From assembly GCA_965116475.1 (NCBI GenBank), contig OZ220691.1, forward strand, positions 1,920,001 to 1,984,000: a stretch of 64,000 bases of DNA. Direction: 5' to 3'. The position numbers were made by a program, and so were the translations under genes. Below, one piece after another: positions 21,206 to 36,386 of this stretch. The stretch's first letter is position 1; every line of letters starts with the position of its first letter. The DNA comes from Gemmatimonadota bacterium (GTDB taxonomy: Bacteria; Gemmatimonadota; Gemmatimonadetes; Palauibacterales; Palauibacteraceae). Below the pieces are notes generated by a model. It was not told the DNA's origin. It ran no database searches and saw nothing but the letters and a program-made list of their open reading frames with translations.

Positions 21206-22342
21206 GTGAACGCCGTACTGCCGGAAGGTCGAAGGGGCACGGTCGCGATGCCGACCGGGTGGACTCCGGAACTGATGGCCGGGACCGACGCCCGCTTCAG
21301 GGTGCGCTACGAACTCGCCGGGCTCGAGGACGCCCCGCTGCTCGTCGCCATGGGGGGCATCTCCGCTGACCGCCACGTCTGCGCCAACCTCCTGGACCCC
21401 GCGCCCGGCTGGTGGAGGAAGCTGGCGGGCCCGGGCCTGGCCATCGACACAAATCGCTGGCGGCTGCTCGCGATCGACTTCCTCGGATCTCCCGGGACGT
21501 GCGAGTCCATGGAGGCCGGCGACCCTTCGACGGAGTCCGGCGACTCATCGAAGGGGTCTTCACCCGACCGGACTCATCTCACGCCCGGAGACCAGGCGGA
21601 CGCCGTAGCGGCCGCGCTGCGCCACCTCGGCGTCGAGCGGGCCCACCGCATGCTGGGCGCCTCGTACGGCGGGATGGTCGCGCTGGCGATGGGGATCCGC
21701 CATCCCGCGCGGCTCGGCGGCGTCGTCCTGATCGGCGCGGCGCACCGCGGCCATCCGCAGGGCATCGGAATACACGCGGTGCAACGCTGGATCGTCGAGT
21801 TCGCGCTCCGGCACGGCCGGGGGAGCGAAGGCGTGGCGCTCGCCAGAGCGCTGGCGTTCACGACCTACAAATCCGCGGCCGGGCTCGACGCGCGTTTCCC
21901 GCACGACTGGGAGTGGGAGGATGGCGCCCCGGTCTACGCCGTCGGCCGCTACCTCGAGAAACAGGGACGCGAGTTCGCGGCACGGTTCGAGGCGGAGACC
22001 TATCTGACGCTGTCCGCTTCGGTCGACCTGTGCGACCTGCGGCCGGAGGAACTCGGCGTCCCCGCCTGGCTCATCGGGTGGGAGGAGGACACGCTGGTGC
22101 CGCCGTGGCTGCTCCGGGAGACCGCAAGCCGGATCGGCGCGCCTTCCCACCTGCGGGTGCTGAACTCCGACGCCGGGCACGACGCCTTCCTGCTCCACGC
22201 CCCCGACTACGAGGCGGCCCTTCGGACCTCGCTCTCGGAGCTGCCGCAGGGTTTGCCACGAGCCGCCGGGGATGCGCACGCAGCCGGTCGACTCGCGGGT
22301 TCAGCCGGTTGGCGCCGCCGCGACGGGAAGCCGTACGCATGA
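21206..22342 (+). CDS. metX: Homoserine O-acyltransferase (MetX, alpha/beta hydrolase)
   Basis: MGGISA, GASYGGMV nucleophile, YLEKQG, GHDAFL; downstream of a SAM-I riboswitch. Confidence 0.85.
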   Translation: MNAVLPEGRRGTVAMPTGWTPELMAGTDARFRVRYELAGLEDAPLLVAMGGISADRHVCANLLDPAPGWWRKLAGPGLAIDTNRWRLLAIDFLGSPGTCESMEAGDPSTESGDSSKGSSPDRTHLTPGDQADAVAAALRHLGVERAHRMLGASYGGMVALAMGIRHPARLGGVVLIGAAHRGHPQGIGIHAVQRWIVEFALRHGRGSEGVALARALAFTTYKSAAGLDARFPHDWEWEDGAPVYAVGRYLEKQGREFAARFEAETYLTLSASVDLCDLRPEELGVPAWLIGWEEDTLVPPWLLRETASRIGAPSHLRVLNSDAGHDAFLLHAPDYEAALRTSLSELPQGLPRAAGDAHAAGRLAGSAGWRRRDGKPYA

Positions 22343-24025
22343 AGGATATGCGGCGGTGTGCAACACCGTGTTGCGCGCCGTTCGCATGCGGGTCCCGGTC
22401 CCGACGTCTTCCCCCGTGTTGAGGTTGCGGCTGAAGCGGGGGAAACAGCTGCTCGTGATCTGAAGCCTGATCCGGTGGCCGGCCCGGAACACGTGGCTCA
22501 TCGGGTAGAGCCGAACCCGGAACTCCGCCGCCTCGCCCGGCTCGAGCAGTTCCGTCCGGCTCAGCCCGCCGCGATACCGCGCGCGCAGGATCCCCTCCGT
22601 GAGAACGAATGATCCTCCCGCCGGATCGACGTTCGTCACGCGCGCCACGAAGTCCGTGTCCCGCGCCGACGACTCGGCGTAGAGCACCACCTCGACCGGC
22701 CCCGTGACCTCCAGATCATCCTCGAGGACGCGCGACGTGTAGACGAGCACGTCCGCCCGCCGCTCGAGCGGCGCCTGCTCGACGGGTCCGCCCCGCATGG
22801 GCGTCTCGGCGTGGGTCGTGATCAGCCGGGAGGAGAGGTTGCCCCCGAGCGACGGCGCCGGGTCGCGCGGGTCGTACTCGAAGCGATCCGGCGGCTCGTT
22901 CCCCGGCGGCTCCGGGTCGAGCCAGGCTTCGTCGCTCCAGTTCGCGCGCCCGCGGCTGCGCAGGTACCACGCCGCCTCCTCCGTCCCCGGTGGCGGCCAC
23001 TCCGCGCCCTCCCGCCACCGGTTGGCGCCCGTCGTGAACCAGCGCAGCGGCGGATCTTCGCCGATCCCGTCGTCCACGCCGCGAAGCTGCCAGTCGAACC
23101 AGCGCCGCTCCTCCTCCCGCACGTCCACCCAGGCGTCCGGCCCGAAGTCGAGGTCCCCGACTGTCCTCATCTCCGGAACTTCGTGCGACCAGGGCCCGAT
23201 GAGCGTCCGGTTCTGCGCGCGGGCGCGGGAAGTCCCGGCTCCCGCCGTCATCCCCTCGTGGAGGCGCAGCGCCGAGCCCGGATACGCGTCGTACCACCCG
23301 CCCTGCTGAAACGCGGGCGCCGTGACGCGGTGGTAGCGATCCGTGACCCTGAGACGCCGCCAGTACTCGTCCCGCGTCGGGTGCTCGAGCCATTCCCGCC
23401 AGTACGGGATCTTCCGCCCGATCGCGCGCTCGTCCATCTCGATGATGGGCAGATGGGCCCAGAACTTCGGGTTCTGAAACAGGCGCGCCGCCTGCCTGCC
23501 GGTCACGATCGCGAGGTTCGTCTCCCAGATCGCGGCCGCGCCGAGCGAGAGGAGCAACTGGAAGGCGCCCCCGAGGTAGTGGCAGTCGCCGAAATAGTCG
23601 TCGCAGATCACGTGCGGGGCCATGCAGGTGAGGTGCGGGCTTCCGAGCGGCGCGCTGAGCCACTGCGTGAGGCCGCCGTAGCTGCGCCCCCACATCCCGA
23701 TCTTCCCGTCGCACCACGCCTGCCCCGCGAGCCACTCCAGGGTGTCGTACCCATCCTCGATCTCGGGGTGATACGCGTGGAACACGCCCTCGGACCTGAA
23801 CCGGCCGCGGCAGTCCTGAACCACGAACGCGTACCCGCGCTCCGCCCACCAGACGCCGTTCTCGATGAACACGTCCCGCCCGCTCTCGTAGGGCGTCCGC
23901 GTCAGGATCGTGGGGAACGGACCTCCCGAAGCGGGCAGATAAACGTCCGCCGACAGCCGCACCCCATCCCGCATCCGCCCCCGCACCCCATGAAGCAACC
24001 GCACCTCCCGCAGGGCTTCGCGCAC
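22301..24025 (-). CDS. CocE/NonD family hydrolase (no signal peptide)
   Basis: MRDGVRLSADVY, RTPY, QDCRG, GRSYGG, GWYD, GPWSH, FPRFSRNLNTG. Confidence 0.9.
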   Translation of the reverse strand: MREALREVRLLHGVRGRMRDGVRLSADVYLPASGGPFPTILTRTPYESGRDVFIENGVWWAERGYAFVVQDCRGRFRSEGVFHAYHPEIEDGYDTLEWLAGQAWCDGKIGMWGRSYGGLTQWLSAPLGSPHLTCMAPHVICDDYFGDCHYLGGAFQLLLSLGAAAIWETNLAIVTGRQAARLFQNPKFWAHLPIIEMDERAIGRKIPYWREWLEHPTRDEYWRRLRVTDRYHRVTAPAFQQGGWYDAYPGSALRLHEGMTAGAGTSRARAQNRTLIGPWSHEVPEMRTVGDLDFGPDAWVDVREEERRWFDWQLRGVDDGIGEDPPLRWFTTGANRWREGAEWPPPGTEEAAWYLRSRGRANWSDEAWLDPEPPGNEPPDRFEYDPRDPAPSLGGNLSSRLITTHAETPMRGGPVEQAPLERRADVLVYTSRVLEDDLEVTGPVEVVLYAESSARDTDFVARVTNVDPAGGSFVLTEGILRARYRGGLSRTELLEPGEAAEFRVRLYPMSHVFRAGHRIRLQITSSCFPRFSRNLNTGEDVGTGTRMRTARNTVLHTAAYPSCVRLPVAAAPTG

Positions 24026-24026
24026 G

Positions 24027-24677
24027 CTAGGTCGGGATGGCGGCGAGGATCTCGGCGGGCTCGGCGCGCGCGGTGTAGTCGGGGTCGGCGGAGGCGTAGA
24101 CGATCGTGCCGTCGCGGTCGATGACGAAAGTGGCCGTGAGCGGGAGTTCCCAGGACTCGTCGCCGTTGAAGCGGGCGAGGTCGATCCCGAGCCCGTCGCG
24201 GTACAGGGTTCGCAGGTCGCCGTCGACGGTGAACGTCAGGCCGTAGTCGCGCGCCACGCCGAGCCCGAAGTCGAGCAGCACGTCGAACTCGATGCCGTCC
24301 TCCTCGATCCAGCCGCGGGCGAACTCCGGGAGCTGCGGGGACAGCGTGACGAGACGCGCCCCCTTCGCCCTTATCTCTGGAAGAACCGACTGAAGAGCAA
24401 CCTGCTCTTCGCGGCAGTAGGGTCACCAGCGGCCGCGGAAGAAGCTGAGCACGACGGGCCCCTGCTTGAGGAGCGTCGCGAGCCGGACCGTGGGGCCGGC
24501 CACGCTCGGGCGCGCGAAGAGCGGCGCCCGGTCGCCCACGCCGGGGATGCGGTCGAGGATGCCGGAACCTCGCAGCGTCTCCGTTCCCGCGGCCATGATG
24601 GCCGTCGCGGGCGGGGGGCGCGCCGCTTCCTTCTCCGCGCGGATCTCGGCGAGACGCCGGTTGAGCGGCCCGCTCAC
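24027..24677 (-). CDS. Peroxiredoxin-like (AhpC/TSA) selenoprotein; TGA at 24423-24425 read as Sec
   Basis: Continuous frame GPVVLSFFRGRW-TGA-PYCREEQVAL...ATFVIDRDGTIVYA; GTG start overlaps the upstream stop; SECIS-like hairpin follows. Confidence 0.85.
24392..24410 (-). promoter_or_regulatory. Bacterial SECIS-like hairpin GAAGAGCA-GGT-TGCTCTTC
   Basis: Perfect 8-bp stem with GGU loop starting 12 nt after the in-frame UGA. Confidence 0.8.
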
Positions 24678-26308
24678 GGCGTGCCGGCGCGGAGGCGCCG
24701 CTCCCAGAAGTCGAGCTGGACGGTGCGGAGGTCGCTTCCCGCCTCGACCGTGGGCCCCAGCACGAGATGCGCTTCGGAGTCGCGCGTGTAGGCTGGCCAC
24801 GGCGGCAGTCCGGGACCGTTCGGGTCGCCGTTCGCGGCGAAGTTGACCCAGTAGGAGGACATCGTCTGCGCCAGCTGGCGGTCCACCGCCTCCCGTTCGC
24901 CGGGACCGACGTTGCCGAAGGCATAGACGATCTCGGCCGCGTGGTACGACTTGAGATAGTCCTTCGCGGGTCCCGGCGGCTCGTGCGTGAAGTAGTAGAG
25001 CCAGGCAGGCGCGCCGGCGGCTTCCGACGCCCGCGCCCACGTCCGCATCTGGATGCCGAACAGGGCGTCGCCCCGGCTTCGCATGAAGGCGTCGAAGATC
25101 TCCCCCTCCTCCTCCACGGGATAGGCGGCCTCGAAGCTCTCCGCATCGTCGCCGACGCGGCCGGCCACCCACTCGCGCCACGCGTCGAGCGTCTCCGGCA
25201 CGGATCTCGGGGACGAGAGCGAGGTCATCTCATCCGCGTTGAACCCGACGAGCACCGGGACGTTGTTGTGCGTTCCTTCCGCGAACGCCGTCGTGATGTC
25301 CGTCGGCAACACCCAGCCGTCCACGTTCTCCGCCGTCCTGAAGCCGCGCCCGGCCGGCGTGTCGAGCCCGGCCATCACGCTGGCGGCGGAGAGCCTCCGC
25401 ATGTCCTCCAGCGTCTCGGCCCCGAGCGCCCCGAGGAACGCCGCGCCGATCTCCTCGGCGGAGCGTCCGCCCTCCGGCGCCTGAGAGAGACGCAGCATGG
25501 GACCGAACCGTCCCCCGCTCTGCCCGATGGCGCCGTGGAAGAGTCCCGCCGCCAGCGGCGTGGCCATCAGCGTGTTCACGCTCCACGAGCCGGCCGACTC
25601 GCCGAAGATCGTCACGCGGTCCGGGTCGCCGCCGAACGCCGCGATGTTGTCCCGTACCCACTCGAGCGCGGCGACCTGGTCGAGGACGCCGTAGTTGCCG
25701 GACGAGCTGTGTTCGGACTCGGCGGAAAGGAGCGGATGCGCGAGGTAGCCGAACGGTCCGAGCCGGTAGTTGATCGTGACGACGACGGCGCCCTTCTCCG
25801 CCAGCGCCGTCCCGTCGTAGATGCCGGTGGAACCGGACCCCCGCGTGAGCGCCCCCCCGTGGATCCACACCATGACCGGCCGCCGCTCCGAGGCGTCGGC
25901 GGCCCCGGTCCACACGTTCAGGTACAGGCAGTCCTCCGCCGTCGGGGCGGGGGGACCTCCGAAGAAGGAGCCGGTGCCGTACGGCGTCTGCATGCACTCC
26001 GGGCCGAAGCTGTGCGCGCGCAGCGTCCGCCGCCCCCACGCTTCGACGGGCTGGGGCGGCTTCCAGCGCCGGTCCCCCACGGGCGGAGCCGCGAACGGAA
26101 TCCCCTTGTAGGAGCGGATGCCGTCGACGAGGCCGCCGTCGACGTTCCCGCTGGCGGTCTCGACGCGGGTGTCCTGCGCCTGCAGCGGCGCCCCGAAGCC
26201 GCCCGCGGCCAGGGCGACGAGCAGGCCGCCGGCCAGTGTGCGGGCCAGTGTGCGGGCCAGTGTGCGGGCCAGTGTGCGGGCTGGATGCGTGCGGAGGTCA
26301 GGGCGCAT
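24674..26308 (-). CDS. Type-B carboxylesterase/lipase family protein, secreted
   Basis: GIPFAAPPVG, EDCLYLNVW, WIHGG, FGESAG, YWVNFA. Confidence 0.92.
   Translation of the reverse strand: MRPDLRTHPARTLARTLARTLARTLAGGLLVALAAGGFGAPLQAQDTRVETASGNVDGGLVDGIRSYKGIPFAAPPVGDRRWKPPQPVEAWGRRTLRAHSFGPECMQTPYGTGSFFGGPPAPTAEDCLYLNVWTGAADASERRPVMVWIHGGALTRGSGSTGIYDGTALAEKGAVVVTINYRLGPFGYLAHPLLSAESEHSSSGNYGVLDQVAALEWVRDNIAAFGGDPDRVTIFGESAGSWSVNTLMATPLAAGLFHGAIGQSGGRFGPMLRLSQAPEGGRSAEEIGAAFLGALGAETLEDMRRLSAASVMAGLDTPAGRGFRTAENVDGWVLPTDITTAFAEGTHNNVPVLVGFNADEMTSLSSPRSVPETLDAWREWVAGRVGDDAESFEAAYPVEEEGEIFDAFMRSRGDALFGIQMRTWARASEAAGAPAWLYYFTHEPPGPAKDYLKSYHAAEIVYAFGNVGPGEREAVDRQLAQTMSSYWVNFAANGDPNGPGLPPWPAYTRDSEAHLVLGPTVEAGSDLRTVQLDFWERRLRAGTP
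26231..26278. repeat. 12-bp tandem repeat (GGCCAGTGTGCG)x4 encoding (RTLA)4 in the signal-peptide region
   Basis: Four exact units read directly. Confidence 0.9.
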
Positions 26309-26322
26309 GCGAAGCTCCGGAG

Positions 26323-26664
26323 TCAGGAGGGAGGCGAGGGGCTGGCGGGGGGCGGCATCTCCCCGTCCCAGCGGAAGCGCTTGAGCGAGATGCGTCCCCA
26401 CTTGTCGAACTCCACCCCTTCGTTCGCCAGCAGCTGGTACTGGATCATCTCGGAGTACGAGTCTCCGCGCGGGCTGATCTCGCCGCGCGCGTTGATCACG
26501 CGGTGCCAGGGGAGCGGCCGGTCGGAAGCGTAGAGCGCGTAACCCACGAGCCGGGCCTGTCCGCCGAGGCCGGCGAGTTGCGCGACCTGCCCGTAGGTGG
26601 CGACGCGCCCGGCGGGAATCCGGGCGACGACGTTGCAGATGCGCTCGTGAAGGTCCGAAGCCAT
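26323..26664 (-). CDS. Alkyltransferase-like protein (ATL/YbaZ, MGMT family)
   Basis: IPAGRVATYGQVA, ARLVG, PWHRV with Trp in place of the catalytic Cys. Confidence 0.88.
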   Translation of the reverse strand: MASDLHERICNVVARIPAGRVATYGQVAQLAGLGGQARLVGYALYASDRPLPWHRVINARGEISPRGDSYSEMIQYQLLANEGVEFDKWGRISLKRFRWDGEMPPPASPSPPS

Positions 26665-26751
26665 GGTGGTCGTCACTCGCTCGGTGGCGGGGCGTGGTGT
26701 CATCTTCGAAGAAGATTCCTGAACGCGTGAATCTTGGGGGGGCGGCAACCG

Positions 26752-28671
26752 ATGGACAAATCCCGGCTCGGGCGCGGTCTCGTACTGGCGGTGGCGCTCG
26801 CCGCGTGTACCGGAGATGGAGGCGCGCCCCCGACCCCGGTCGCCGACGGCCAGGGCGCGGCGGGCGCGGGCGCCGCCCTCAATCGATTCGCGCCGGACCC
26901 GGCCAATCCTTACGAGGCCCCCGAGCCGGAGCACGAGGTGCGGGTCGAGACGGATCTCCTGGTCCCGATGCGGGACGGGATTCGCCTCGCGACGGATCTC
27001 TACCTGCCGGTCGAGCCCGCCGACCGGGGTGATCGCCTTCCCGTCGTCATGATCCGATTGCCGTACGACAAGGCATCCTATCGGGCCGGCGCGATCTCTC
27101 CGGCGCGGTTCTTCGCGGGACACGGATACGCCGTCGTCGTCCAGGACGTGCGCGGCAAATACGCGTCGGAAGGGGACTATCTCCTGTCCGCCGCGGACCG
27201 CGAGGACGGCTACGACGCCGTCGAGTGGGCCTCGACCCGGCCGTGGTCGAACGGGAAGGTCGGGACCTTCGGCTGCTCCTACCTGGGGGAGAACCAGACG
27301 CAACTGATGACGCAGCGCCACCCGGCGCACGCCGCCGCCATCCCTCTGGCGGCCGGCGGATCGGTCGGATCGGCCGGCGGGCGGTACGGCTACTTCGGCA
27401 TCTTCGAGGGGGGCGCCTTCGGGCTCTCCGCGAGTTTCGGCTGGTTCCGGGGCAACGGCCGGAAGCGGCCGGGGGGTGAGCCGCCGCCACCGGTCGAGAT
27501 GTTCGCCGCGCTGCGCGAGCTTCCCACCATCGACCTCATGCGGAAGTACGGTCCGCCCGACCGGGACACCGACTGGGAAGAGGTCATGAGCACGCCGCTC
27601 GCCGACGAATGGTGGGACGGACTCGGATACCTGAGCGACGCGGACCGGTTCGACACGCCGGCGCTCCACGTGAACTCGTGGTACGACCTCGGCGCCAACG
27701 AGACGCTCCAGCAGTGGCGGATGATGCGGGACAATGCGGTGAGCGACCGGGGCGGCGCGCACCAGTACGTCATCCTCTCTCCCACCAGCCATTGCATGTC
27801 CGAACGGGCCACGGAACACACGGTGGTCGGGGAGGTCGACTTCGGCGACGCCCGCCTCCCGTACCGTTCGCTCTACCTCGCCTGGTTCGACCACTGGCTG
27901 AAGGGCGTGGACAACGGGATCACCGACATCCCCCGGGTCCACTACTACGTGATGGGCCGGAACGAATGGGCCTCGGCCGACACGTGGCCGCCCCCCGGAG
28001 CCGAGGCGACCCGCTTCTATCTCCGCGGCGGAGGGCACGCGAACACGAGGCTCGGCGACGGCGTCCTCTCCGCCGAGCCCCCCGCGGACGAACCCCCGGA
28101 CCGGTTCGTCTACGATCCCGCGGACCCCGTCCCCTCCCGCGGCGGATCCGTCTGCTGCACCGGGAATCCCGACGACCAGCCGGGCGCGTTCGACCAGTCG
28201 GATATCGAGGAACGCGAGGACGTCCTCGTGTACACCGGCGATCCGGTCGGAGAGGACGGCCTCGAGATCGCGGGCCCGCTCGAGGCGCGCCTCTACGTGA
28301 GTTCGAGCGCCCCGGACACCGACTTCACCGTGAAGCTCCTCGATGTCCATCCCGACGGACGGGCCATCAACATCGTCGAGGGCATCATGAGGGCGCGCTA
28401 CCGGGACGGATACGAGGAACCCGCCATGATGGAGGCGGGGCAGGTCTATCCGGTCCGGGTGGATCTCCATTCGGTGGCACACCGGTTCGCGCCCGGCCAC
28501 CGCGTGCGCGTCGAGGTCTCGAGTTCCAACTTCCCCCGCTTCGACCGCAACCTGAACACGGGCGGCAACAACTATGACGAGACGGAGTGGGAGGTCGCGG
28601 AGAACATGATTCACCACGCCGGCGACCGGGCATCGCACATCGTCCTGCCCGTCATGGAGACGGACGGATGA
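26752..28671 (+). CDS. CocE/NonD family hydrolase lipoprotein
   Basis: Lipobox LAAC, MRDGIRLATDLY, QDVRG, GCSYLG, FPRFDRNLNTG. Confidence 0.9.
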   Translation: MDKSRLGRGLVLAVALAACTGDGGAPPTPVADGQGAAGAGAALNRFAPDPANPYEAPEPEHEVRVETDLLVPMRDGIRLATDLYLPVEPADRGDRLPVVMIRLPYDKASYRAGAISPARFFAGHGYAVVVQDVRGKYASEGDYLLSAADREDGYDAVEWASTRPWSNGKVGTFGCSYLGENQTQLMTQRHPAHAAAIPLAAGGSVGSAGGRYGYFGIFEGGAFGLSASFGWFRGNGRKRPGGEPPPPVEMFAALRELPTIDLMRKYGPPDRDTDWEEVMSTPLADEWWDGLGYLSDADRFDTPALHVNSWYDLGANETLQQWRMMRDNAVSDRGGAHQYVILSPTSHCMSERATEHTVVGEVDFGDARLPYRSLYLAWFDHWLKGVDNGITDIPRVHYYVMGRNEWASADTWPPPGAEATRFYLRGGGHANTRLGDGVLSAEPPADEPPDRFVYDPADPVPSRGGSVCCTGNPDDQPGAFDQSDIEEREDVLVYTGDPVGEDGLEIAGPLEARLYVSSSAPDTDFTVKLLDVHPDGRAINIVEGIMRARYRDGYEEPAMMEAGQVYPVRVDLHSVAHRFAPGHRVRVEVSSSNFPRFDRNLNTGGNNYDETEWEVAENMIHHAGDRASHIVLPVMETDG

Positions 28672-29135
28672 CCCGGTCCGGATCACCGCCCCCGGCCCAC
28701 CGGCCGGACCTCGACGAAGCGGTCGAGACGTGGTCGCGCATGAACGATGCCTCGATCCTGCGCAGCGTCGCCGCCGTCATCCTGGGCTTCGTCGCCCTGA
28801 CGCTGGGCTCGGTGCTCACCGGCCGGCTGCTGCTGTCACTCTTCGGCGTCGAACCGGGGGCGGCTCCCGGCGCCGCGTTCATCTTCACGAGTCTCGGTGT
28901 GCGCCTCGCCATCACCGTCCTGGCGGGCTTCCTCGCGGCCCTGGCCGCTCCGCGCGCGCCGCGCCTCCATGCCGTCGTCCTCGCGGCGATCCTCGTCTTC
29001 TTCAGCCTCGCCTCGCTCGCCGGCCTCTCGGCCTCCGGCGACCCGTACGGCCCGGCATGGTATCCCATCGCGATGCTCGTCATGGGCCCCGCCGGCGTCC
29101 TCATCGGCGGGTCCCTCCGAAGGCGAAACCGCTAG
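28668..29135 (+). CDS. Hypothetical four-TM membrane protein
   Basis: Four hydrophobic segments; ATGA overlap with the upstream gene; start could be 28740. Confidence 0.65.
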   Translation: MTRSGSPPPAHRPDLDEAVETWSRMNDASILRSVAAVILGFVALTLGSVLTGRLLLSLFGVEPGAAPGAAFIFTSLGVRLAITVLAGFLAALAAPRAPRLHAVVLAAILVFFSLASLAGLSASGDPYGPAWYPIAMLVMGPAGVLIGGSLRRRNR

Positions 29136-29163: not shown

Positions 29164-32100
29164 TCACGGCCTCCCGCCGGTCCGGTCGGGCAGACCTCGG
29201 CTGATCAGAACCTCAAGGCCCGATTCGCCCGCCAGCGCGGACAGGGCGGTGTGAGGGTCACGGCGCGCGGACTCGGCCAAGGCTCGGATCGCGGCCATTT
29301 CACCCTTCGGGACGACGGCGCCGACCTCTGGATCCGAGAGGAAGGCCCGGATGCGTCCCGTTTCCCGGTCGCGAAGGATGGCCGCAGGGCGATCGGTCTT
29401 CTCGTCGAGAACCGCTGTTCCGCCCGGCCCCGAGAGCGTAATGCGCGCCAGCGCGTCTCCCCATGACGGTTGGACGGGGAGCGCAAACACAAACGACGCC
29501 ACGCCATCGCCGCCGGCGACTTCGTCCATGTCGAAGTCGAACCGGAACAACTCCCGGCCATCCGCCGTCTGCCCGGAGACCTCGTATCGACCTCCGGCCC
29601 GCGGCAGTGCCGGTGGCGCCTCGACGAAGAACGCCGGTTCGAGGAATGGCGTCCCACGCTCGTTGACTCCGCCCCACAGCAGCAGGGCGTCCGCTTGGGG
29701 CCAGAGGCCGACTGCCGGCTCACCGCCGGAACTGCGTCGAGCCTGAAACGCCTTGGTGAAGTGATACTCGCTGATCCACTTCGGTGGACCGCATTCGGAC
29801 ATCAAGTCAGGTGTGTCGGGCTCGATCAGCGAGCCGTTCCGGAAATCATATCCCCAGGCGCCGATCGACCCGTCGCCGTGGGGAAACGCGGGATCCACTA
29901 CGAACCTCGTCCCGCAGGGTGCGTGGTACAGCCCCATGTTGTGACCCAACTGGTTCGCGATCACCCACGGGTCCGCGATGGAAAAACTCGCAGGAAATCG
30001 GATGTAGGCGGCGCCCGTTCCGTCGGTACTCCCGGCCATGGTGCCCATGTAGTGGCCGCGCTGCCCCTCCATCGTCCAAATCACATTCGTGAGCACGGCC
30101 AGATCCCTTGCATTGTTCGTCAATACGACCGTCGGTTCGCGTACCGACACGTCGATCTCTCGGACGGGGAGCAGCGCGCGCACGGCCCAGAACAACTCGT
30201 CTTCTTCCGCAAACGTGCGCAGAATCGAGGAGTCGGGGGCCGCAAGGTAAAGGAACGGGATCACCGTGAGATCCAACCTCGGCATCCGTCCCACGTCCAC
30301 CGGAATGCGGCCCACCTCGGGGATGCGTCTCGCAAGGTTGATTCCGTCGTCGAGCGTCCGCTCGGGGTCGATCTCGATGACCATCTCGAGGCCGGGCTGG
30401 ATGACCCAGCCCGGAATCTCGACATTGGCCGAAAGCTCGAGCGAACCCTCCTCCGCTTCCATCGGGATGGGACTCGTTCCACCCAGAATCGTCGCCACGT
30501 GGGCCTCCACCCCGTCGACATGGAATCGGGCCCGCACCGGAGGGATGGTCTTGCCTCGTGCATTCGGGGCCGCCACAAAGACGCGCAGGAGCGCGGGCTC
30601 ATCGGCGACGAGAGGGACCGGGAACGCCAGCGACTGCACCGCCTGTGTCAGGTAGGCGTTCGATCCGGCGCACCGGGGCAGGCCCTCCGCCCCTGTTCCC
30701 GAAAGCCAATCCAGCAGATCCGCATCCGAGGGGGCGCAAAGCTCCGTGTGGCTCGCCCGGAGTCGCTTCAGACTGGCCAAGTCGACGAAGCTCGTCGGCA
30801 GCGCGCCCGAGAGCTGCCGATTGCCGGTCAGATCGAGGTGCTCGAGGTTCGCGAGCCTGCCCAACTCCTCCGGAACGGCACCGGACCAATCTCCGCTGCG
30901 CAGGATGAGTTCCCTGAGGCTGGCGAGGTTACCGAGTTCGGGCGGGATGGATTGGTCGAAGGGGTTTTCGCCGATGTTCAGCACTTCCAGGCTGGCGAGA
31001 CCCCCAAGCTCGGGCGGAATGCTGTCGAGACGGTTCCCCCGAAGGTTAAGTACCCGCAGTCGTGAGAGGCTACCCAGCTCTGAGGGGATCGGACCCGAAA
31101 GCTGCAGTACGATGCCCCGAAATGGCTCCGTGTCATGGCTGAGGTCCAGCACTCTGAGTCGGTCGAGGTCCCCGAGCCGGGCAGGAATCGAACCCCACAG
31201 ATCGTTGCCGCCAAGATCCAGTACTTCGAGGTCGGAGAGGTTTCCGAGCCGAGCCGGAATCTCCGCAATCAGCCCCATGTCGCTAACGTCGAGCACCCTC
31301 AACCTGGAGAGATCGGCGAGAGCATGAAGCTCCACGCCGTACCGCATCGGGTTGTCGCTGAAGTCCAGCACTTCGAGCTTCGACAACTGGCCCAGTTCGC
31401 GCCAGTAACGCCTGAGGCGGTTTCCGGAAAGTCGTAACTCGACGAGGTTTGAGAGGCTCCCCAGTTCCGGCGGGATCGCGCCGGAGAGGCGGTTGTTCCG
31501 AATCGAAAGATGTGTGAGTTCGCTCAGGTCGCCGAGTTCCGGCGGGAGCTCATCCACGAGGTGGTTGTCGTCGAGAGACAGACGGGAAAGATGGGAGAGC
31601 CCGCCGAGTTCGGAAGGAATCTCCCCGGCCAGATTATTGTGATCGAGCGTCAGCCCGACGATGCGGCCATCGTCGTCGACTTCGACTCCGTACCATTCCT
31701 CGGGCGGCGCATCCTCCAGCCAGTTATCGCTTCGGGTCCAGTTCTCGCCTCCGGTTGCGCGGTACAGGGCGGCGAGAACTCCGCGATAGGAAAGAGACGT
31801 ACACTCGGATCCTGTTCCATGATGCGAAGGAAGGGCCGAAATCCAGTCGCGAAACGACTCATCGGGAGGCGCACATAGATCCGTCCCGGCGTAGTGGAAC
31901 ACCCGGAGCGAAAGCCGGGTCATGGAGACGGTCAGCGCCCCCGAAAGCGCGTTCCGCCCTACACGAAGTGTCGACAAATGGCGGAGTCGCCACAGATCCG
32001 GCGGGAGGAGGCCCGTCAGGCCATTCCCGCTCAGGTCGAGCCCGGTGACCTGCCCGAGACTGTCGGCGGTCACGCCGTGCCATCCGTCGAGCGCCGCAAC

Positions 32101-32895
32101 GGCCTGCAGTCGCAGGGACCCCTCCGCTTGTATCGTCCACCACTCCACGTCCTCCCAACCCTCGGCGTGCGCCCACTGGTCCCCTTCGGCGGACTCGTAC
32201 AGTGACAGGAGAACGCGGGTATCCGCCGAGTTGCAGAACGGCCCGTTGTAATCGAGGGTGCCCGGGTTCACCTGATCCGCGGCGATGTCTTCGGCCCAGC
32301 CGATAAAGGCGGCCGTGCCGGGGGCGCAGAGACCATCGTTCTCCGAGAACCGGAAAGTGGCGGGATCCAGGTTCAGGAAGCTGCGCGGAATAGCCCCTCC
32401 AAGGTTGTTCCTGGAGAGCCGCAGGTGCGCCAGCCGGAGGAGCCTTCCGATTTCGGCCGGAATGGGGCCAGTCAGCCGATTGCCTCCGAGGTCCAGGTGC
32501 GTGAGGTCCCTCAGATGCCCGACGTCGGCCGGGATCGAGCCCGCCAGCTGGTTATGTCCCAGTGACAGCTGCTTAACCCGTCCTGCCTCGACCCACACGC
32601 CGTGCCAGTCGCCGAGCGGCGCGTCGGTGAGCCAGTTGTCGCGGTTTTTCCAGTTGGGGCCATCGGTCGCATGGTACAGGGCGACGAGCGCGGCCCGGTC
32701 GGAGTCCGAGTTCGCGGCCGAAACGGCGGCGGTCGCCGAGACCGCGCCCGATTCCGGCCGCTCCGTGCGGTCGGGCGCGACGGAGTCGTCCATACAGGAG
32801 AGAGCCAGCGCGCACGCCAGGCCAGCCTTGAGCAACGGGTGCCCGGTCCCGGTGGTCGACACTGCCGCGGGCCGCTCACGTCCCAGCGCTTTCAT
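29164..32895 (-). CDS. Large LRR lipoprotein with degenerate metzincin/M66-like C-terminal domain
   Basis: Many LxxLxLxxNxLxGxIPxELG repeats, ALxALYxATxG caps, lipobox ALSC, NQLGHNMGLYHAPCG. Confidence 0.85.
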   Translation of the reverse strand: MKALGRERPAAVSTTGTGHPLLKAGLACALALSCMDDSVAPDRTERPESGAVSATAAVSAANSDSDRAALVALYHATDGPNWKNRDNWLTDAPLGDWHGVWVEAGRVKQLSLGHNQLAGSIPADVGHLRDLTHLDLGGNRLTGPIPAEIGRLLRLAHLRLSRNNLGGAIPRSFLNLDPATFRFSENDGLCAPGTAAFIGWAEDIAADQVNPGTLDYNGPFCNSADTRVLLSLYESAEGDQWAHAEGWEDVEWWTIQAEGSLRLQAVAALDGWHGVTADSLGQVTGLDLSGNGLTGLLPPDLWRLRHLSTLRVGRNALSGALTVSMTRLSLRVFHYAGTDLCAPPDESFRDWISALPSHHGTGSECTSLSYRGVLAALYRATGGENWTRSDNWLEDAPPEEWYGVEVDDDGRIVGLTLDHNNLAGEIPSELGGLSHLSRLSLDDNHLVDELPPELGDLSELTHLSIRNNRLSGAIPPELGSLSNLVELRLSGNRLRRYWRELGQLSKLEVLDFSDNPMRYGVELHALADLSRLRVLDVSDMGLIAEIPARLGNLSDLEVLDLGGNDLWGSIPARLGDLDRLRVLDLSHDTEPFRGIVLQLSGPIPSELGSLSRLRVLNLRGNRLDSIPPELGGLASLEVLNIGENPFDQSIPPELGNLASLRELILRSGDWSGAVPEELGRLANLEHLDLTGNRQLSGALPTSFVDLASLKRLRASHTELCAPSDADLLDWLSGTGAEGLPRCAGSNAYLTQAVQSLAFPVPLVADEPALLRVFVAAPNARGKTIPPVRARFHVDGVEAHVATILGGTSPIPMEAEEGSLELSANVEIPGWVIQPGLEMVIEIDPERTLDDGINLARRIPEVGRIPVDVGRMPRLDLTVIPFLYLAAPDSSILRTFAEEDELFWAVRALLPVREIDVSVREPTVVLTNNARDLAVLTNVIWTMEGQRGHYMGTMAGSTDGTGAAYIRFPASFSIADPWVIANQLGHNMGLYHAPCGTRFVVDPAFPHGDGSIGAWGYDFRNGSLIEPDTPDLMSECGPPKWISEYHFTKAFQARRSSGGEPAVGLWPQADALLLWGGVNERGTPFLEPAFFVEAPPALPRAGGRYEVSGQTADGRELFRFDFDMDEVAGGDGVASFVFALPVQPSWGDALARITLSGPGGTAVLDEKTDRPAAILRDRETGRIRAFLSDPEVGAVVPKGEMAAIRALAESARRDPHTALSALAGESGLEVLISRGLPDRTGGRP

Positions 32896-35800
32896 CGCGT
32901 TCCGCCATCCCGGTCCGCCCCGTAAGGGAGGCCCCGGCTGAAGAGAAGCGTGAGGTCACTCCCGAGACCGCCGTCCGGGAGCGTCGTGACAGGCACGCCG
33001 TCGCGGATCGCAACGCCGGAATAGCCGGGAAGGACGGTCGTGCCCGGCTGGCCCCGCAGAATCGCGCGGATCGACCCCGTCGATGAATCGCGGAGGATTG
33101 CCGTCGGCCGATCGGTATTCTCGTCCAGGGTGACGGCCCCTCCCGGACCCGACAGAGTGAGTCGCGCCAGCAAGTTGGCCCACTCGGGCTCGAGCGGAAG
33201 CACGAAAGCAAATCCGGCCCCCCCATCCCGCGCGGTCGCCCGGGGCAGATCGAAGGCCAGCGAAAAGAGCGTCGTACCCGCGGTCGTGCTCCCGGTCAAC
33301 CTGTAGTCTCTTCCGGCCCGGGGCAGCCACGGTGGAGCGTCGACGACGAAAGCCGGTTCGAGGTGCGGCACCCCCGAATCCTCTACTCCACCCCAGAGGA
33401 GCAACCCGGGAGCAGCGCCGGGCATGGCCGTCACCCTGCCGCCGCCGTCCATTGCGGTAAGGTCAAGGGCGCGCGTGAAGTGGAATCCGCTGATCCACCG
33501 GGGCTCGCATTCGGACATCAGGTCGTATCTTTCCGGCGTGACGAGCGTCTGGTGACGACGGTCGTACCCCCAGTCTCCGATCGAACCGTCTCCGTTCGGG
33601 AACGCTCGACCGAACCAATCGGTTCGCCCGTCGCACGGGGCCTCGTTCAGCCCCATGCTGGAGCCCAATTGCTGTGCCATCACCCAGGGATCGAAGACCG
33701 CGAAGCTCGACCCCCGGGAGGCTGCCCCCGGCGGCCCCATGATCTCCCCGGCCATCGTTGCCATGTAGTGACCCACTCCACCCTCGATTCGGCGTATGGC
33801 CGCCGCCTCCCCCGCCAGCCTGAACGTGTGGTTGGAGAAAGTCGTCACCGGCGGGTGCACGACAGGTCTCAGTTCTCCGACCGGCAAGAGGGTCCGCAGA
33901 GGAAAAAAGATGTCATCGTCCGCGGCGAGGTTCGCGGTCAGGTGCAGGATGGACGAGTCCGGCGCCGCTCTGTACAGGAAGGGGATGACCGTGAGGTCGA
34001 GCGGGGGAACGGCCCTCACATCAATGCGCAGCCGACCGGCCTCGGGAAAGCGTGACGGAAGGTCCAATCCCCCTTGGAGGCTCCCGTCCGGATCGATCTG
34101 GAGCACCACTTCCAGGCCCGGCTGGATCACCCAGCCGGGAATATCGGCGTTGAGGGACAACCCCAGGGATCCCTCATCGATTTCAGCCGGAATGACGACC
34201 GTTCCCGCGGGCAAGTCCCGTGTCAAAACTTCGGTGTCCCCCCGGTAGAAGCGGGCGCGCACCGGGGGCATGGTCTGTCCTGCGACGTTCGGGGAAGCCA
34301 CGAAGACGCGAAGCAGCGCAGGCTCCCCCGCGACCAGCGGCACCGGCGCCGAGAGCGACTGCACCGACTGCGTCAAGTATGCGTTCACGCCCACGCACAA
34401 CGGGGTGGCCTCCGCGCCCCTGCCGGCGAGCCAGTCGAGGAAGTCCGGAGCCCTCGGGGCGCAGAGCCCGGTATCGTCCAGGGCAAGCTCCCCCAGTTCC
34501 GGAAGGGAGGCCAGACTCAAGGGCAGCGGTCCCGTAAGGTCCCGATTCGCGGCCAGATCCAGCCGCTCGAGGTTCGCGAGTTCTCCGAGTTCCGTGGGCA
34601 GGTTGCCCGACAGTTCGTTGTCGGCAAGCAGGAGTTCGCGCAGACTCGACAGGCTTCCCAGCTCGGCCGGAATCGAGTACCGCAGCCGGTTACCGCGCAG
34701 ATCCAGCACTTCGAGACTCGACAGACGGCCCAGTTCCACAGGTATCGCGTAGTTGAGACCGGGAGAGGGGTAGGCGGGGGGCTGTCGCATCCTGCTTAGA
34801 TCCAGCACTCTCAACGCGGCAAGCTGCCCGAGCTCGGGCGGGATCGGGCCCACGAGACGATTGCCGCTCAGGTCCAGGACTCTTGCGCGTCGCAGTTTCC
34901 CGAGTGCCCCCGGTATGGAACCGTATAAGTCGTTGTCGCTTAGATCGAGCACTTCCAGGTTTGGAAGGTCACCCAGTGTCTCCATGCTTACATTGTCGAG
35001 CCGGTTCTGTCCCAGCTTCAGGTCGATCAGGCTCTCGAGCCGGTGGAGTCCCCATATTCGGCCCACCAAACCGTTGTCCGTCAGGTCCAGCGCCTGCACG
35101 CGACCAAGGGAGTCGACGGTCACACCGTACCAGTCCGTTGGATCGGCCGCCGCGCCGACCTCCAACCACTCTTCGATTCCTTCAAGCCATCCCGTGGAAT
35201 TCGTCCAGTTCTCGCCACCCGCGAAGTAGTAGAGCGACTCCAACTCAAGCACGTCGGTCGCGTTGCAGAACGGCCCGGCGTAGGAGATCCGCTCCGGCGG
35301 CGCAGGCGAACGGTTACGGATCGCGCCCGCCCATTCGATGAAGTTCGTGGTGCCGGGCGCACAAAGGTTGTTGTTTCGCCCGAACCGGAATTCGAACAGC
35401 TCAAGCGAGAGAAAACTGCGGGGCACGCTGCCGGTCAGGCGGTTCGAGGACAGTTCCAGACGCATCAGTTCCCGCAGATTGCCGAGGCTGGCGGGAAGCG
35501 GTCCGGTCAGACGATTCCAGGAGAGATCCAGCTCCCTCAACGCGTCGAGCCCGTCGATCTCCTCGGGGATGGATTCTGTCAGGAGATTTCGGGAGAGGTT
35601 CAGCCTGGTCAGGCCGCCCAGGTTCCCCAACTCGGCCGGAATGGCGCCGGTGAGCCGGTTCCCGGACAGATTCACCGTGTGCAGCTTCTCCAGTCTGGAC
35701 AGTTCCTTCGGGAGCGGTCCCCCCAAGCTGTTGTCCGGGAGCAACAACACTTCGAGGTTCGCGAGGTCGCCGATCTCGGCCGGAACAGGGCCGTATAGAG

Positions 35801-36386
35801 CGTTCTTCCCCAGGCTCAGTTCGACGACCTGGCCGGCGTCGTCCACCCGGACGCCGCTCCAGTTCGCGACCGGGGCATCCGTCAACCAGTTGTCCCTCCC
35901 GATCCAGTTCGGCCCGTCCGTGGCCCCGTAGAACGCCTCGAGCGCCACCCGATCCGACTCCGCGCTCGTCACGAGCACTGCCGCGCTGCCCGAAGCCGAC
36001 CGGACCGAGGCGCTCACCGTCGCCGCCCCGTAGCCCACTGACGTGACCAGTCCTCCGGCGTCTACGGCCGCGACCGCCTCAGCCGTACTCGACCAGGTGG
36101 GAGTCACATCGCGCATGACCCGTCCGTTCTGATCACGGACAGTCGCCTCCAGACGCACGGTGGCGCCGAGCGCCGTAAACCGGATGGTGGGAGGGTCGAC
36201 CGAGACGGACGCAGGCTGGGGACGTGCGATCGGCTCGGCGGGACCATCCCCGCACGAGGCGACCGTCATGATCGCAACGCACGTTGCAGCGACCGCGCGG
36301 CCCGCCGCGCACCGCCCGGATCCGCGTGGGCGTCCGAACTGATCCGGGTTTCCCATGGCGATCTCCGAACCCCCTTTCGAGGCCAC
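32892..36386 (-). CDS. Ig-like + LRR lipoprotein with degenerate metzincin/M66-like C-terminal domain (start may be 36356)
   Basis: Lipobox VASC, WSSTAEAVAAVDAGGLVT Ig-like motif, LRR repeats, QQLGSSMGLNEAPC. Confidence 0.85.
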   Translation of the reverse strand: MASKGGSEIAMGNPDQFGRPRGSGRCAAGRAVAATCVAIMTVASCGDGPAEPIARPQPASVSVDPPTIRFTALGATVRLEATVRDQNGRVMRDVTPTWSSTAEAVAAVDAGGLVTSVGYGAATVSASVRSASGSAAVLVTSAESDRVALEAFYGATDGPNWIGRDNWLTDAPVANWSGVRVDDAGQVVELSLGKNALYGPVPAEIGDLANLEVLLLPDNSLGGPLPKELSRLEKLHTVNLSGNRLTGAIPAELGNLGGLTRLNLSRNLLTESIPEEIDGLDALRELDLSWNRLTGPLPASLGNLRELMRLELSSNRLTGSVPRSFLSLELFEFRFGRNNNLCAPGTTNFIEWAGAIRNRSPAPPERISYAGPFCNATDVLELESLYYFAGGENWTNSTGWLEGIEEWLEVGAAADPTDWYGVTVDSLGRVQALDLTDNGLVGRIWGLHRLESLIDLKLGQNRLDNVSMETLGDLPNLEVLDLSDNDLYGSIPGALGKLRRARVLDLSGNRLVGPIPPELGQLAALRVLDLSRMRQPPAYPSPGLNYAIPVELGRLSSLEVLDLRGNRLRYSIPAELGSLSSLRELLLADNELSGNLPTELGELANLERLDLAANRDLTGPLPLSLASLPELGELALDDTGLCAPRAPDFLDWLAGRGAEATPLCVGVNAYLTQSVQSLSAPVPLVAGEPALLRVFVASPNVAGQTMPPVRARFYRGDTEVLTRDLPAGTVVIPAEIDEGSLGLSLNADIPGWVIQPGLEVVLQIDPDGSLQGGLDLPSRFPEAGRLRIDVRAVPPLDLTVIPFLYRAAPDSSILHLTANLAADDDIFFPLRTLLPVGELRPVVHPPVTTFSNHTFRLAGEAAAIRRIEGGVGHYMATMAGEIMGPPGAASRGSSFAVFDPWVMAQQLGSSMGLNEAPCDGRTDWFGRAFPNGDGSIGDWGYDRRHQTLVTPERYDLMSECEPRWISGFHFTRALDLTAMDGGGRVTAMPGAAPGLLLWGGVEDSGVPHLEPAFVVDAPPWLPRAGRDYRLTGSTTAGTTLFSLAFDLPRATARDGGAGFAFVLPLEPEWANLLARLTLSGPGGAVTLDENTDRPTAILRDSSTGSIRAILRGQPGTTVLPGYSGVAIRDGVPVTTLPDGGLGSDLTLLFSRGLPYGADRDGGTR

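Follow-up and report, generated by a model that had tools for sequence, protein, structure and literature searches.

A gene on the minus strand of the window (the whole 64,000-nucleotide stretch of Gemmatimonadota DNA analyzed here) encodes a predicted thioredoxin-fold redoxin and is interrupted by a single in-frame TGA. The conservation of this codon, a hairpin just downstream of it, and the presence of selenocysteine (Sec) machinery in the same genome suggest that UGA-85 is very probably decoded as Sec and that the locus is a selenoprotein gene. The first-pass annotation had proposed that one frame runs from a GTG start through the TGA to a TAG stop, giving 216 amino acids, and re-reading of the minus strand bore this out, the TGA being the sole interruption (Table 1). 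Translation with TGA as U yields SFFRGRW-U85-PYC88, so that the FFRGRW-U-PYC motif reported earlier was recovered in full.

The host genome is a single contig of 3.62 Mb with 69% G+C. Pairwise dN/dS was 0.14 to 0.38 for codons 1 to 84 and 0.13 to 0.20 for codons 86 to 216, and these low values on both sides of the TGA argue for translation of both halves in this frame and for purifying selection on each. Across positions 22301 to 26401, sampled words were present at a fraction of 0.97 in the public sequencing run X1 and 0.37 in the RNA run X2, values that are not evidence of expression. The closest public proteins are C-terminal pieces of 118 to 134 amino acids, equivalent to 53 to 58% of the query, from Gemmatimonadales and Gemmatimonadota MAGs; those that have a name are annotated as “redoxin domain-containing protein.” Public annotations of sponge-associated Candidatus Palauibacter cut the Sec redoxin gene short.

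Table 1. Features in and outside the window (features outside it are given in coordinates of the host genome, G000, contig C1)
Feature	Coordinates	Strand	Remarks
Sec-containing Prx-like redoxin CDS (predicted)	24027..24677	minus	216 aa; start GTG 24677-24675, stop TAG 24029-24027
UGA codon, very probably read as Sec	24423..24425	minus	Residue 85, first position of U-P-Y-C
Putative SECIS hairpin	24392..24410	minus	5' arm 24410-24403, loop GGU 24402-24400, 3' arm 24399-24392
Carboxylesterase (type B), upstream	24674..26401	minus	Pfam COesterase 8.8e-108
CocE/NonD family hydrolase, downstream	22301..24025	minus	NCBIfam CocE_NonD 7.2e-131; Pfam Peptidase_S15 and PepX_C
Second Prx-like selenoprotein gene (predicted; L122)	G000:C1:2099436-2099912	minus	Outside window; FFYRGHWUPYC; TGA 2099783-2099781; Pfam AhpC-TSA 4.3e-30
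Candidate AhpD-like/CMD selenoprotein gene, CxxU (L120)	G000:C1:648497-649282	minus	Outside window; NACRYU; Pfam CMD 7.3e-12
Candidate AhpD-like/CMD selenoprotein gene, CxxU (L121)	G000:C1:228968-229825	minus	Outside window; LDCFYU; Pfam CMD 1.4e-9
selD	G000:C1:176319-177246 (L011:1499-1505)	minus	Outside window; split by one extra base
tRNA-SeC(tca)	C1:3530731-3530826		Outside window

Conservation of the UGA codon

We searched 41 related genomes for orthologues, 25 of them from the genus Candidatus Palauibacter (Gemmatimonadota) and 16 from its sister family. A full-length orthologue with exactly one TGA was found in 20 of the 25 genus genomes, at 65 to 100% identity, and all 20 kept both FFRGRWUPYC and the hairpin described below. 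The remaining five comprised one genome with an N-terminal fragment ending before the site, two with a paralogue only, and two without a match; a sense codon at the UGA site was found in none of the 25. With this query, none of the 16 sister-family genomes gave a match at an E value of 1e-10, which means not found and is no proof of absence.

A wider scan of one-genome-per-species contigs, with the single protein as the query, returned 80 loci, at which the codon in the UGA position was TGA in 34, Cys in 44, and ambiguous in 2. Thirty of the 34 TGA loci were 57 to 94% identical to the query and nearly all were labeled Gemmatimonadota, many of them Candidatus Palauibacter from sponges; the other four were labeled Candidatus Angelobacter, Terriglobia, Planctomycetota, and uncultured bacterium. 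One record labeled uncultured Deferribacteres (L060) contains a 68%-identical Sec orthologue with a hairpin of the Gemmatimonadota type, which may reflect a wrong bin label or gene transfer. All 12 full-length homologues in alignment A1 likewise have Cys in the UGA column (RGxWCPYC), these relatives being 43 to 51% identical and named “peroxiredoxin-like family protein” in Streptomyces, Bosea, Acidobacteria, and others. The first-pass annotation had anticipated Cys at this position in homologues, as is seen in both sets, and had also looked to relatives for retention of the UGA and the hairpin. Retention was complete among the full-length genus orthologues and partial in the wider set, in which 34 of the 80 loci have TGA and 44 have Cys.

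A conserved hairpin downstream of the UGA

A perfect hairpin had been reported 12 nt past the UGA, and it is present as described: GAAGAGCA-GGT-TGCTCTTC forms a perfect 8-bp Watson-Crick stem that starts exactly 12 nt past the TGA. The RNAalifold consensus of the 20 genus orthologues is this same 8-bp stem, with 98.8% of alignment cells paired. Pair 26-42 is A-U in 18 of these sequences, U-A in 1, and U-G in 1; covariation inside the genus is limited to a single pair and to two related sequences. With other phyla included (35 distinct sequences), 90.4% of cells are paired, and compensatory changes occur at two pairs, 26-42 (AU in 20, CG in 5, UA in 1, and UG in 1) and 32-36 (AU in 28 and UA in 3). 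The covariation score was reached by 0 of 500 shuffles, and controls slid along the alignment had only 35 to 59% of cells paired. The three lowest pairs are lost in 7 to 8 of the 35 wider sequences, leaving a 5-bp core, and the loop at one locus (L066) is GUC, not GGN. The acidobacterial and planctomycete genes have another stem sequence, GCGGAGCU-GGC-AGCUCUGC, placed at an equal distance and also bearing a GGN loop.

The codons of the 3' arm are frozen. Ala94 is encoded by GCT in all 20 orthologues and Leu95 by CTT in 17 of 19; in the two flanking genes, GCT accounts for 3 of 131 Ala codons and CTT for 7 of 100 Leu codons. Third-position G/C is 4/10 in codons 91 to 100, most other windows of the gene reaching 9 to 10 of 10, in keeping with the earlier remark that the codons at the hairpin are unusually AT rich. 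As a genome-wide chance expectation, counted on both strands and in any frame, there are 68,167 TGA trinucleotides, of which 92 are followed at this distance by a stem of at least 7 bp with a GGN loop, 38 by a stem of at least 8 bp with such a loop, and 4 by a stem of at least 8 bp built from Watson-Crick pairs only.

Folded alone, the 69-nt stretch did no better than shuffles (z = 0.16), and since single-sequence folding carried no signal, we relied on the comparative evidence. The single-sequence fold also contained an extended stem of 13 pairs, which is absent from the consensus and was dropped. An Rfam scan of the region matched no bacterial SECIS family; a match to the SAH riboswitch at 24462-24536 on the plus strand, antisense to the coding sequence, was below threshold (25 bits against a gathering cutoff of 37; E value, 0.025) and was taken as chance. 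In the same genome, selD and the paralogous redoxin gene have 7- to 9-bp stems with a GGA loop and GG 20 to 21 nt past the UGA, as here. The Sargasso Sea paper (PMC1088965) characterizes bacterial selenoprotein genes by a stem-loop that directly follows the UGA and whose small apical loop contains G, and both features are found at this locus.

Sec machinery and the selD frameshift

The first-pass annotation had reasoned that Sec insertion would call for selA, selB, selD, and tRNA-Sec in the genome, and all four were found: selA (491 bits), selB (372.6 bits), selD (236 bits, with a further N-terminal piece that contains a TGA of its own), and the tRNA gene listed in Table 1. selD itself has an in-frame TGA, in the motif GAGUACK. 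In this assembly selD lies in two frames that break at a run of five C residues (C1, about 176971-176978), and in 29 of 36 genus genomes it lies in one frame with one TGA. We compared the contigs of four public runs with the selD locus. One run (X3) had no cover at the C5 run, and the others had one base fewer exactly there, at depths of 35.4/35.4 in X1, 21.2/21.2 in the RNA run X2, and 5.1/8.8 in X4; X1 is possibly the genome's own source sample and hence lends no independent support. Because the extra base is missing from read-derived contigs, the frameshift seen for this strain probably arose as an assembly error in the homopolymer, and the Sec pathway is most likely intact. In five other genomes of the genus (G004, G009, G024, G045, and G018), the selD match has no TGA and lies inside a very long open frame of 749 to 985 amino acids, possibly an Ndh-SelD fusion of the kind described in the GOS paper (PMC2398784); in G004 and G009 the redoxin is still the Sec form.

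Other candidate selenoprotein genes

The product of the second Prx-like gene (Table 1) is 35% identical to the redoxin in the window, and its N terminus looks like a lipoprotein signal (...LALAVGSTAC...). A separate hairpin, GCAGCUC-GGA-GAGCUGC, accompanies the gene, and 21 of the 25 genus genomes yield a match with one TGA. A rough genome screen for a TGA followed by a hairpin in a coding context gave five places; it missed selD, one of its hits looks spurious, and it is no census of the selenoproteome. In this screen the two candidate AhpD-like genes each showed a 7-bp hairpin with GG 17 nt past the UGA. The Prx-like Sec pair, the two candidate CxxU genes, and the Sec-type selD point to a small antioxidant selenoproteome in this genome.

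Flanking hydrolase genes

The redoxin gene is tightly coupled to its neighbors, as the first-pass annotation had pointed out: the TGA stop of the carboxylesterase gene upstream (24676-24674) shares bases with its GTG start, and the GTG start of the CocE/NonD hydrolase gene lies 1 nt past its TAG. Among the 20 genus loci, the esterase gene is upstream in 16 and the CocE gene is within the 1.5-kb flank in 15; in three genus loci it lies about 0.8 to 1.2 kb farther off than in the window. Among the 80 wider loci, both neighbors are found in only 18, all with at least 83% identity, and they are absent within 1.5 kb from the other 16 Sec loci and from the Cys loci. The coupling is real but evolutionarily shallow. 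The setting had been called unusual for a selenoprotein; esterase and CocE genes do flank the redoxin gene here, but the arrangement is a feature of its closest relatives only.

It could be argued from this arrangement that the protein, while a real selenoprotein, is a dedicated redox partner of the flanking carboxylesterase and CocE/NonD hydrolase and not a general redoxin. The start and stop codons that overlap or abut, and the retention of each neighbor in at least 15 of the 20 genus loci, are consistent with such a partnership; the absence of both from the vicinity of the other Sec loci and the Cys loci, together with the greater distance to CocE in three genus loci, argues against it, and we regard it as unlikely. 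More doubtful still is the proposal that core Candidatus Palauibacter recruited the Sec redoxin into a translationally coupled carboxylesterase/Sec-redoxin/CocE-NonD unit, in which it would act as the redox component in the detoxification or breakdown, inside the sponge host, of ester-type metabolites or xenobiotics. If true, a selenoprotein would here be working alongside serine hydrolases, a combination that the parts of PMC1088965, PMC2398784, PMC13188914, and PMC5029168 available to us do not describe.

Several other genes lie close by. An ORF of 787 amino acids upstream of the esterase gene (26323-28686, minus strand) matches only the C-terminal O6-methylguanine-DNA methyltransferase DNA-binding domain, and since the match is confined to residues 679 to 758, the ORF is probably overextended. 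A third alpha/beta-hydrolase gene (21206-22342, plus strand) converges on the CocE gene. Two adjacent minus-strand ORFs, 29164-32895 (1243 amino acids) and 32892-36386 (1164 amino acids), encode many leucine-rich repeats (Pfam LRR_8 and LRR_14). Eukaryote-like repeat proteins of the leucine-rich kind are common in sponge symbionts.

Alternatives to selenocysteine insertion

The UGA might instead be read through without Sec, by near-cognate insertion of Trp or Cys or as a reassigned stop, or the two halves might be made as separate polypeptides. That we infer the identity of the inserted residue, and that selD is frameshifted in the assembly, would leave room for such readings. In the genus, however, TGA acts as a normal stop: it terminates the upstream esterase gene as well as 6 of 19 complete orthologues, which means that no reassignment has taken place. 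The genome has a complete set of Sec machinery genes, contigs built from reads do not show the selD frameshift, and the distance and GG loop of the hairpin are as in the same genome's selD and in Escherichia coli fdhF. As for separate halves, residue 85 falls in the AlphaFold2 model between strand E75-79 and helix H86-97, the active-site helix, so that a break there would sever the thioredoxin fold, and every one of the 12 full-length Cys homologues is a single chain. Taken as a group, these readings seem to us very improbable. A pseudogene or sequencing error, in which a TGC or TGT codon of a Cys-type redoxin gene had become a nonsense TGA with a chance hairpin nearby, would agree with the public gene calls, which treat the locus as broken and yield the C-terminal pieces noted above, and with the ordinary overall folding energy of the region, but it is scarcely credible given a TGA in every one of the 20 full-length genus orthologues (identity down to 65%) as well as at 34 of the 80 wider loci, dN/dS values of 0.13 to 0.38 on both sides of the TGA, compensatory changes in the conserved hairpin, and the rare GCT and CTT codons frozen within it.

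Predicted fold and proposed chemistry

Decoding of UGA-85 as Sec would give a 216-residue protein that matches Pfam AhpC-TSA (9.7e-25) and Redoxin (1.1e-17), with a score of 87.3 bits for PF00578 (AhpC/TSA) against a cutoff of 26. None of the curated NCBIfam models scored over its cutoff, the best being SelL_rel_redox (NF040769) at 36.2 bits against 120. The AlphaFold2 model (pLDDT of 94.9 over the whole length; pTM of 0.91) places a thioredoxin-type core after two long helices within residues 4 to 37 (H4-19 and H22-37). The nearest solved folds found by Foldseek are BCP/PrxQ/AhpE peroxiredoxins and ResA (E value of about 1e-12; TM score to the target of 0.8 to 0.87), and the best solved-structure match by sequence is ResA (4nmu; E value of 5.9e-9).

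The active-site motif is UxxC, U85-P-Y-C88, instead of the TxxC or TxxU of true peroxiredoxins, and in the alignment with BCP (2cx3) the Pro and Thr/Ser that precede the peroxidatic Cys of canonical peroxiredoxins are not found. R81 and Sec85 lie at the Pro and Ser positions of 2cx3, and T181 lies at its catalytic Arg in a weakly aligned second stretch (0.4 bits), which suggests that the peroxiredoxin catalytic set is not kept. The earlier description as “peroxiredoxin-like” is apt as far as the AhpC-TSA domain goes; judged by these alignments, the predicted protein is a CxxC-type “Prx-like” redoxin and not a canonical peroxiredoxin.

We propose that the gene product is a cytoplasmic redoxin in which Sec would take the place of the attacking N-terminal Cys of a CxxC motif. 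By the established bacterial mechanism, the mRNA hairpin would offer its GGU apical loop to SelB-GTP and Sec-tRNA(Sec), and SelB would hand Sec to the ribosome paused at UGA-85, after which translation would run on to the TAG. From what is proposed for the family, the U85 selenolate would attack a substrate disulfide, peroxide, or sulfenic acid, C88 would resolve the intermediate by forming a selenenylsulfide within the molecule, and the protein would be regenerated by a reductant of the thioredoxin type. Given Sec insertion, homology mildly favors reduction of thiol-disulfides or sulfenates as the main activity; direct hydroperoxide reduction is a possible but less likely main role.

Relation to known systems

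SelB decoding is the established mechanism for the SECIS element of E. coli fdhF, which has a bulged U with no counterpart in the hairpin described here. The first-pass annotation had placed the fdhF apex about 11 nt past the UGA, and in NC_000913.3 the stem-loop GGTTGCAGGTCTGCACC does start 11 nt past the TGA. The two elements share a stem-loop that starts 11 to 12 nt past the UGA, an apical ...GCAGGU..., and GG in the loop. They differ in that the helix here is a perfect 8 bp with a 3-nt loop and in that GG lies 20 nt past the UGA, against 18 nt in fdhF; the host proteins are unrelated.

Among proteins, the BCP/PrxQ/AhpE peroxiredoxins (2cx3, 5epf, and 3hjp) are the nearest solved folds, and C88 lies opposite the peroxidatic Cys of 2cx3, the differences lying at the Pro, Ser, and Arg positions given above. 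With ResA/TlpA/CcmG proteins (4nmu, 1st9, and 2b1k), the W-C-x-x-C motifs align, U85 falling at the first Cys of the ResA CxxC. The ResA/TlpA/CcmG proteins are membrane-anchored or periplasmic cytochrome maturation factors. The redoxin, unlike these, has no hydrophobic N terminus by eye and carries a helical N-terminal extension, and identity is about 20%.

The family to which we assign the protein has been in print since 2005 to 2008 (PMC1088965, PMC2398784, and PMC13188914). Table 2 of the GOS paper (PMC2398784) lists “Prx-like 1, pfam00578, UxxC,” with counts of 225 for selenoproteins and 2,740 for Cys homologues, a 2026 review (PMC13188914) lists a “Prx-like thiol:disulfide oxidoreductase, PF00578, UxxC” predicted with high confidence, and a survey in ISME J (PMC5029168) counts the family among bacterial selenoproteins. 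The string “Gemmatimonad” is absent from the text available to us of PMC13188914 and PMC5029168, and a literature search on selenocysteine and Gemmatimonadetes returned no paper about the combination by title. What is new here is the lineage and the evidence for shortened public annotations; the selenoprotein family was already known. The mechanistic gain is small, Prx-like UxxC selenoproteins and bacterial SECIS elements being textbook cases of bioinformatic prediction. The wider point is that marine-sponge Gemmatimonadota have a small predicted antioxidant selenoproteome missed by standard gene callers, and missed selenoproteins affect metabolic reconstructions and the proteomics search databases derived from them.

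By the PF00578-plus-UxxC definition, the predicted protein falls among the known Prx-like 1/Prx-like thiol:disulfide oxidoreductase selenoproteins. With these it shares the PF00578 domain, a UxxC motif with Sec first, abundant Cys homologues, and a bacterial SECIS element with a small G-containing apical loop, and it differs in its two-helix N-terminal extension, which lies outside the span of the nearest solved structures.
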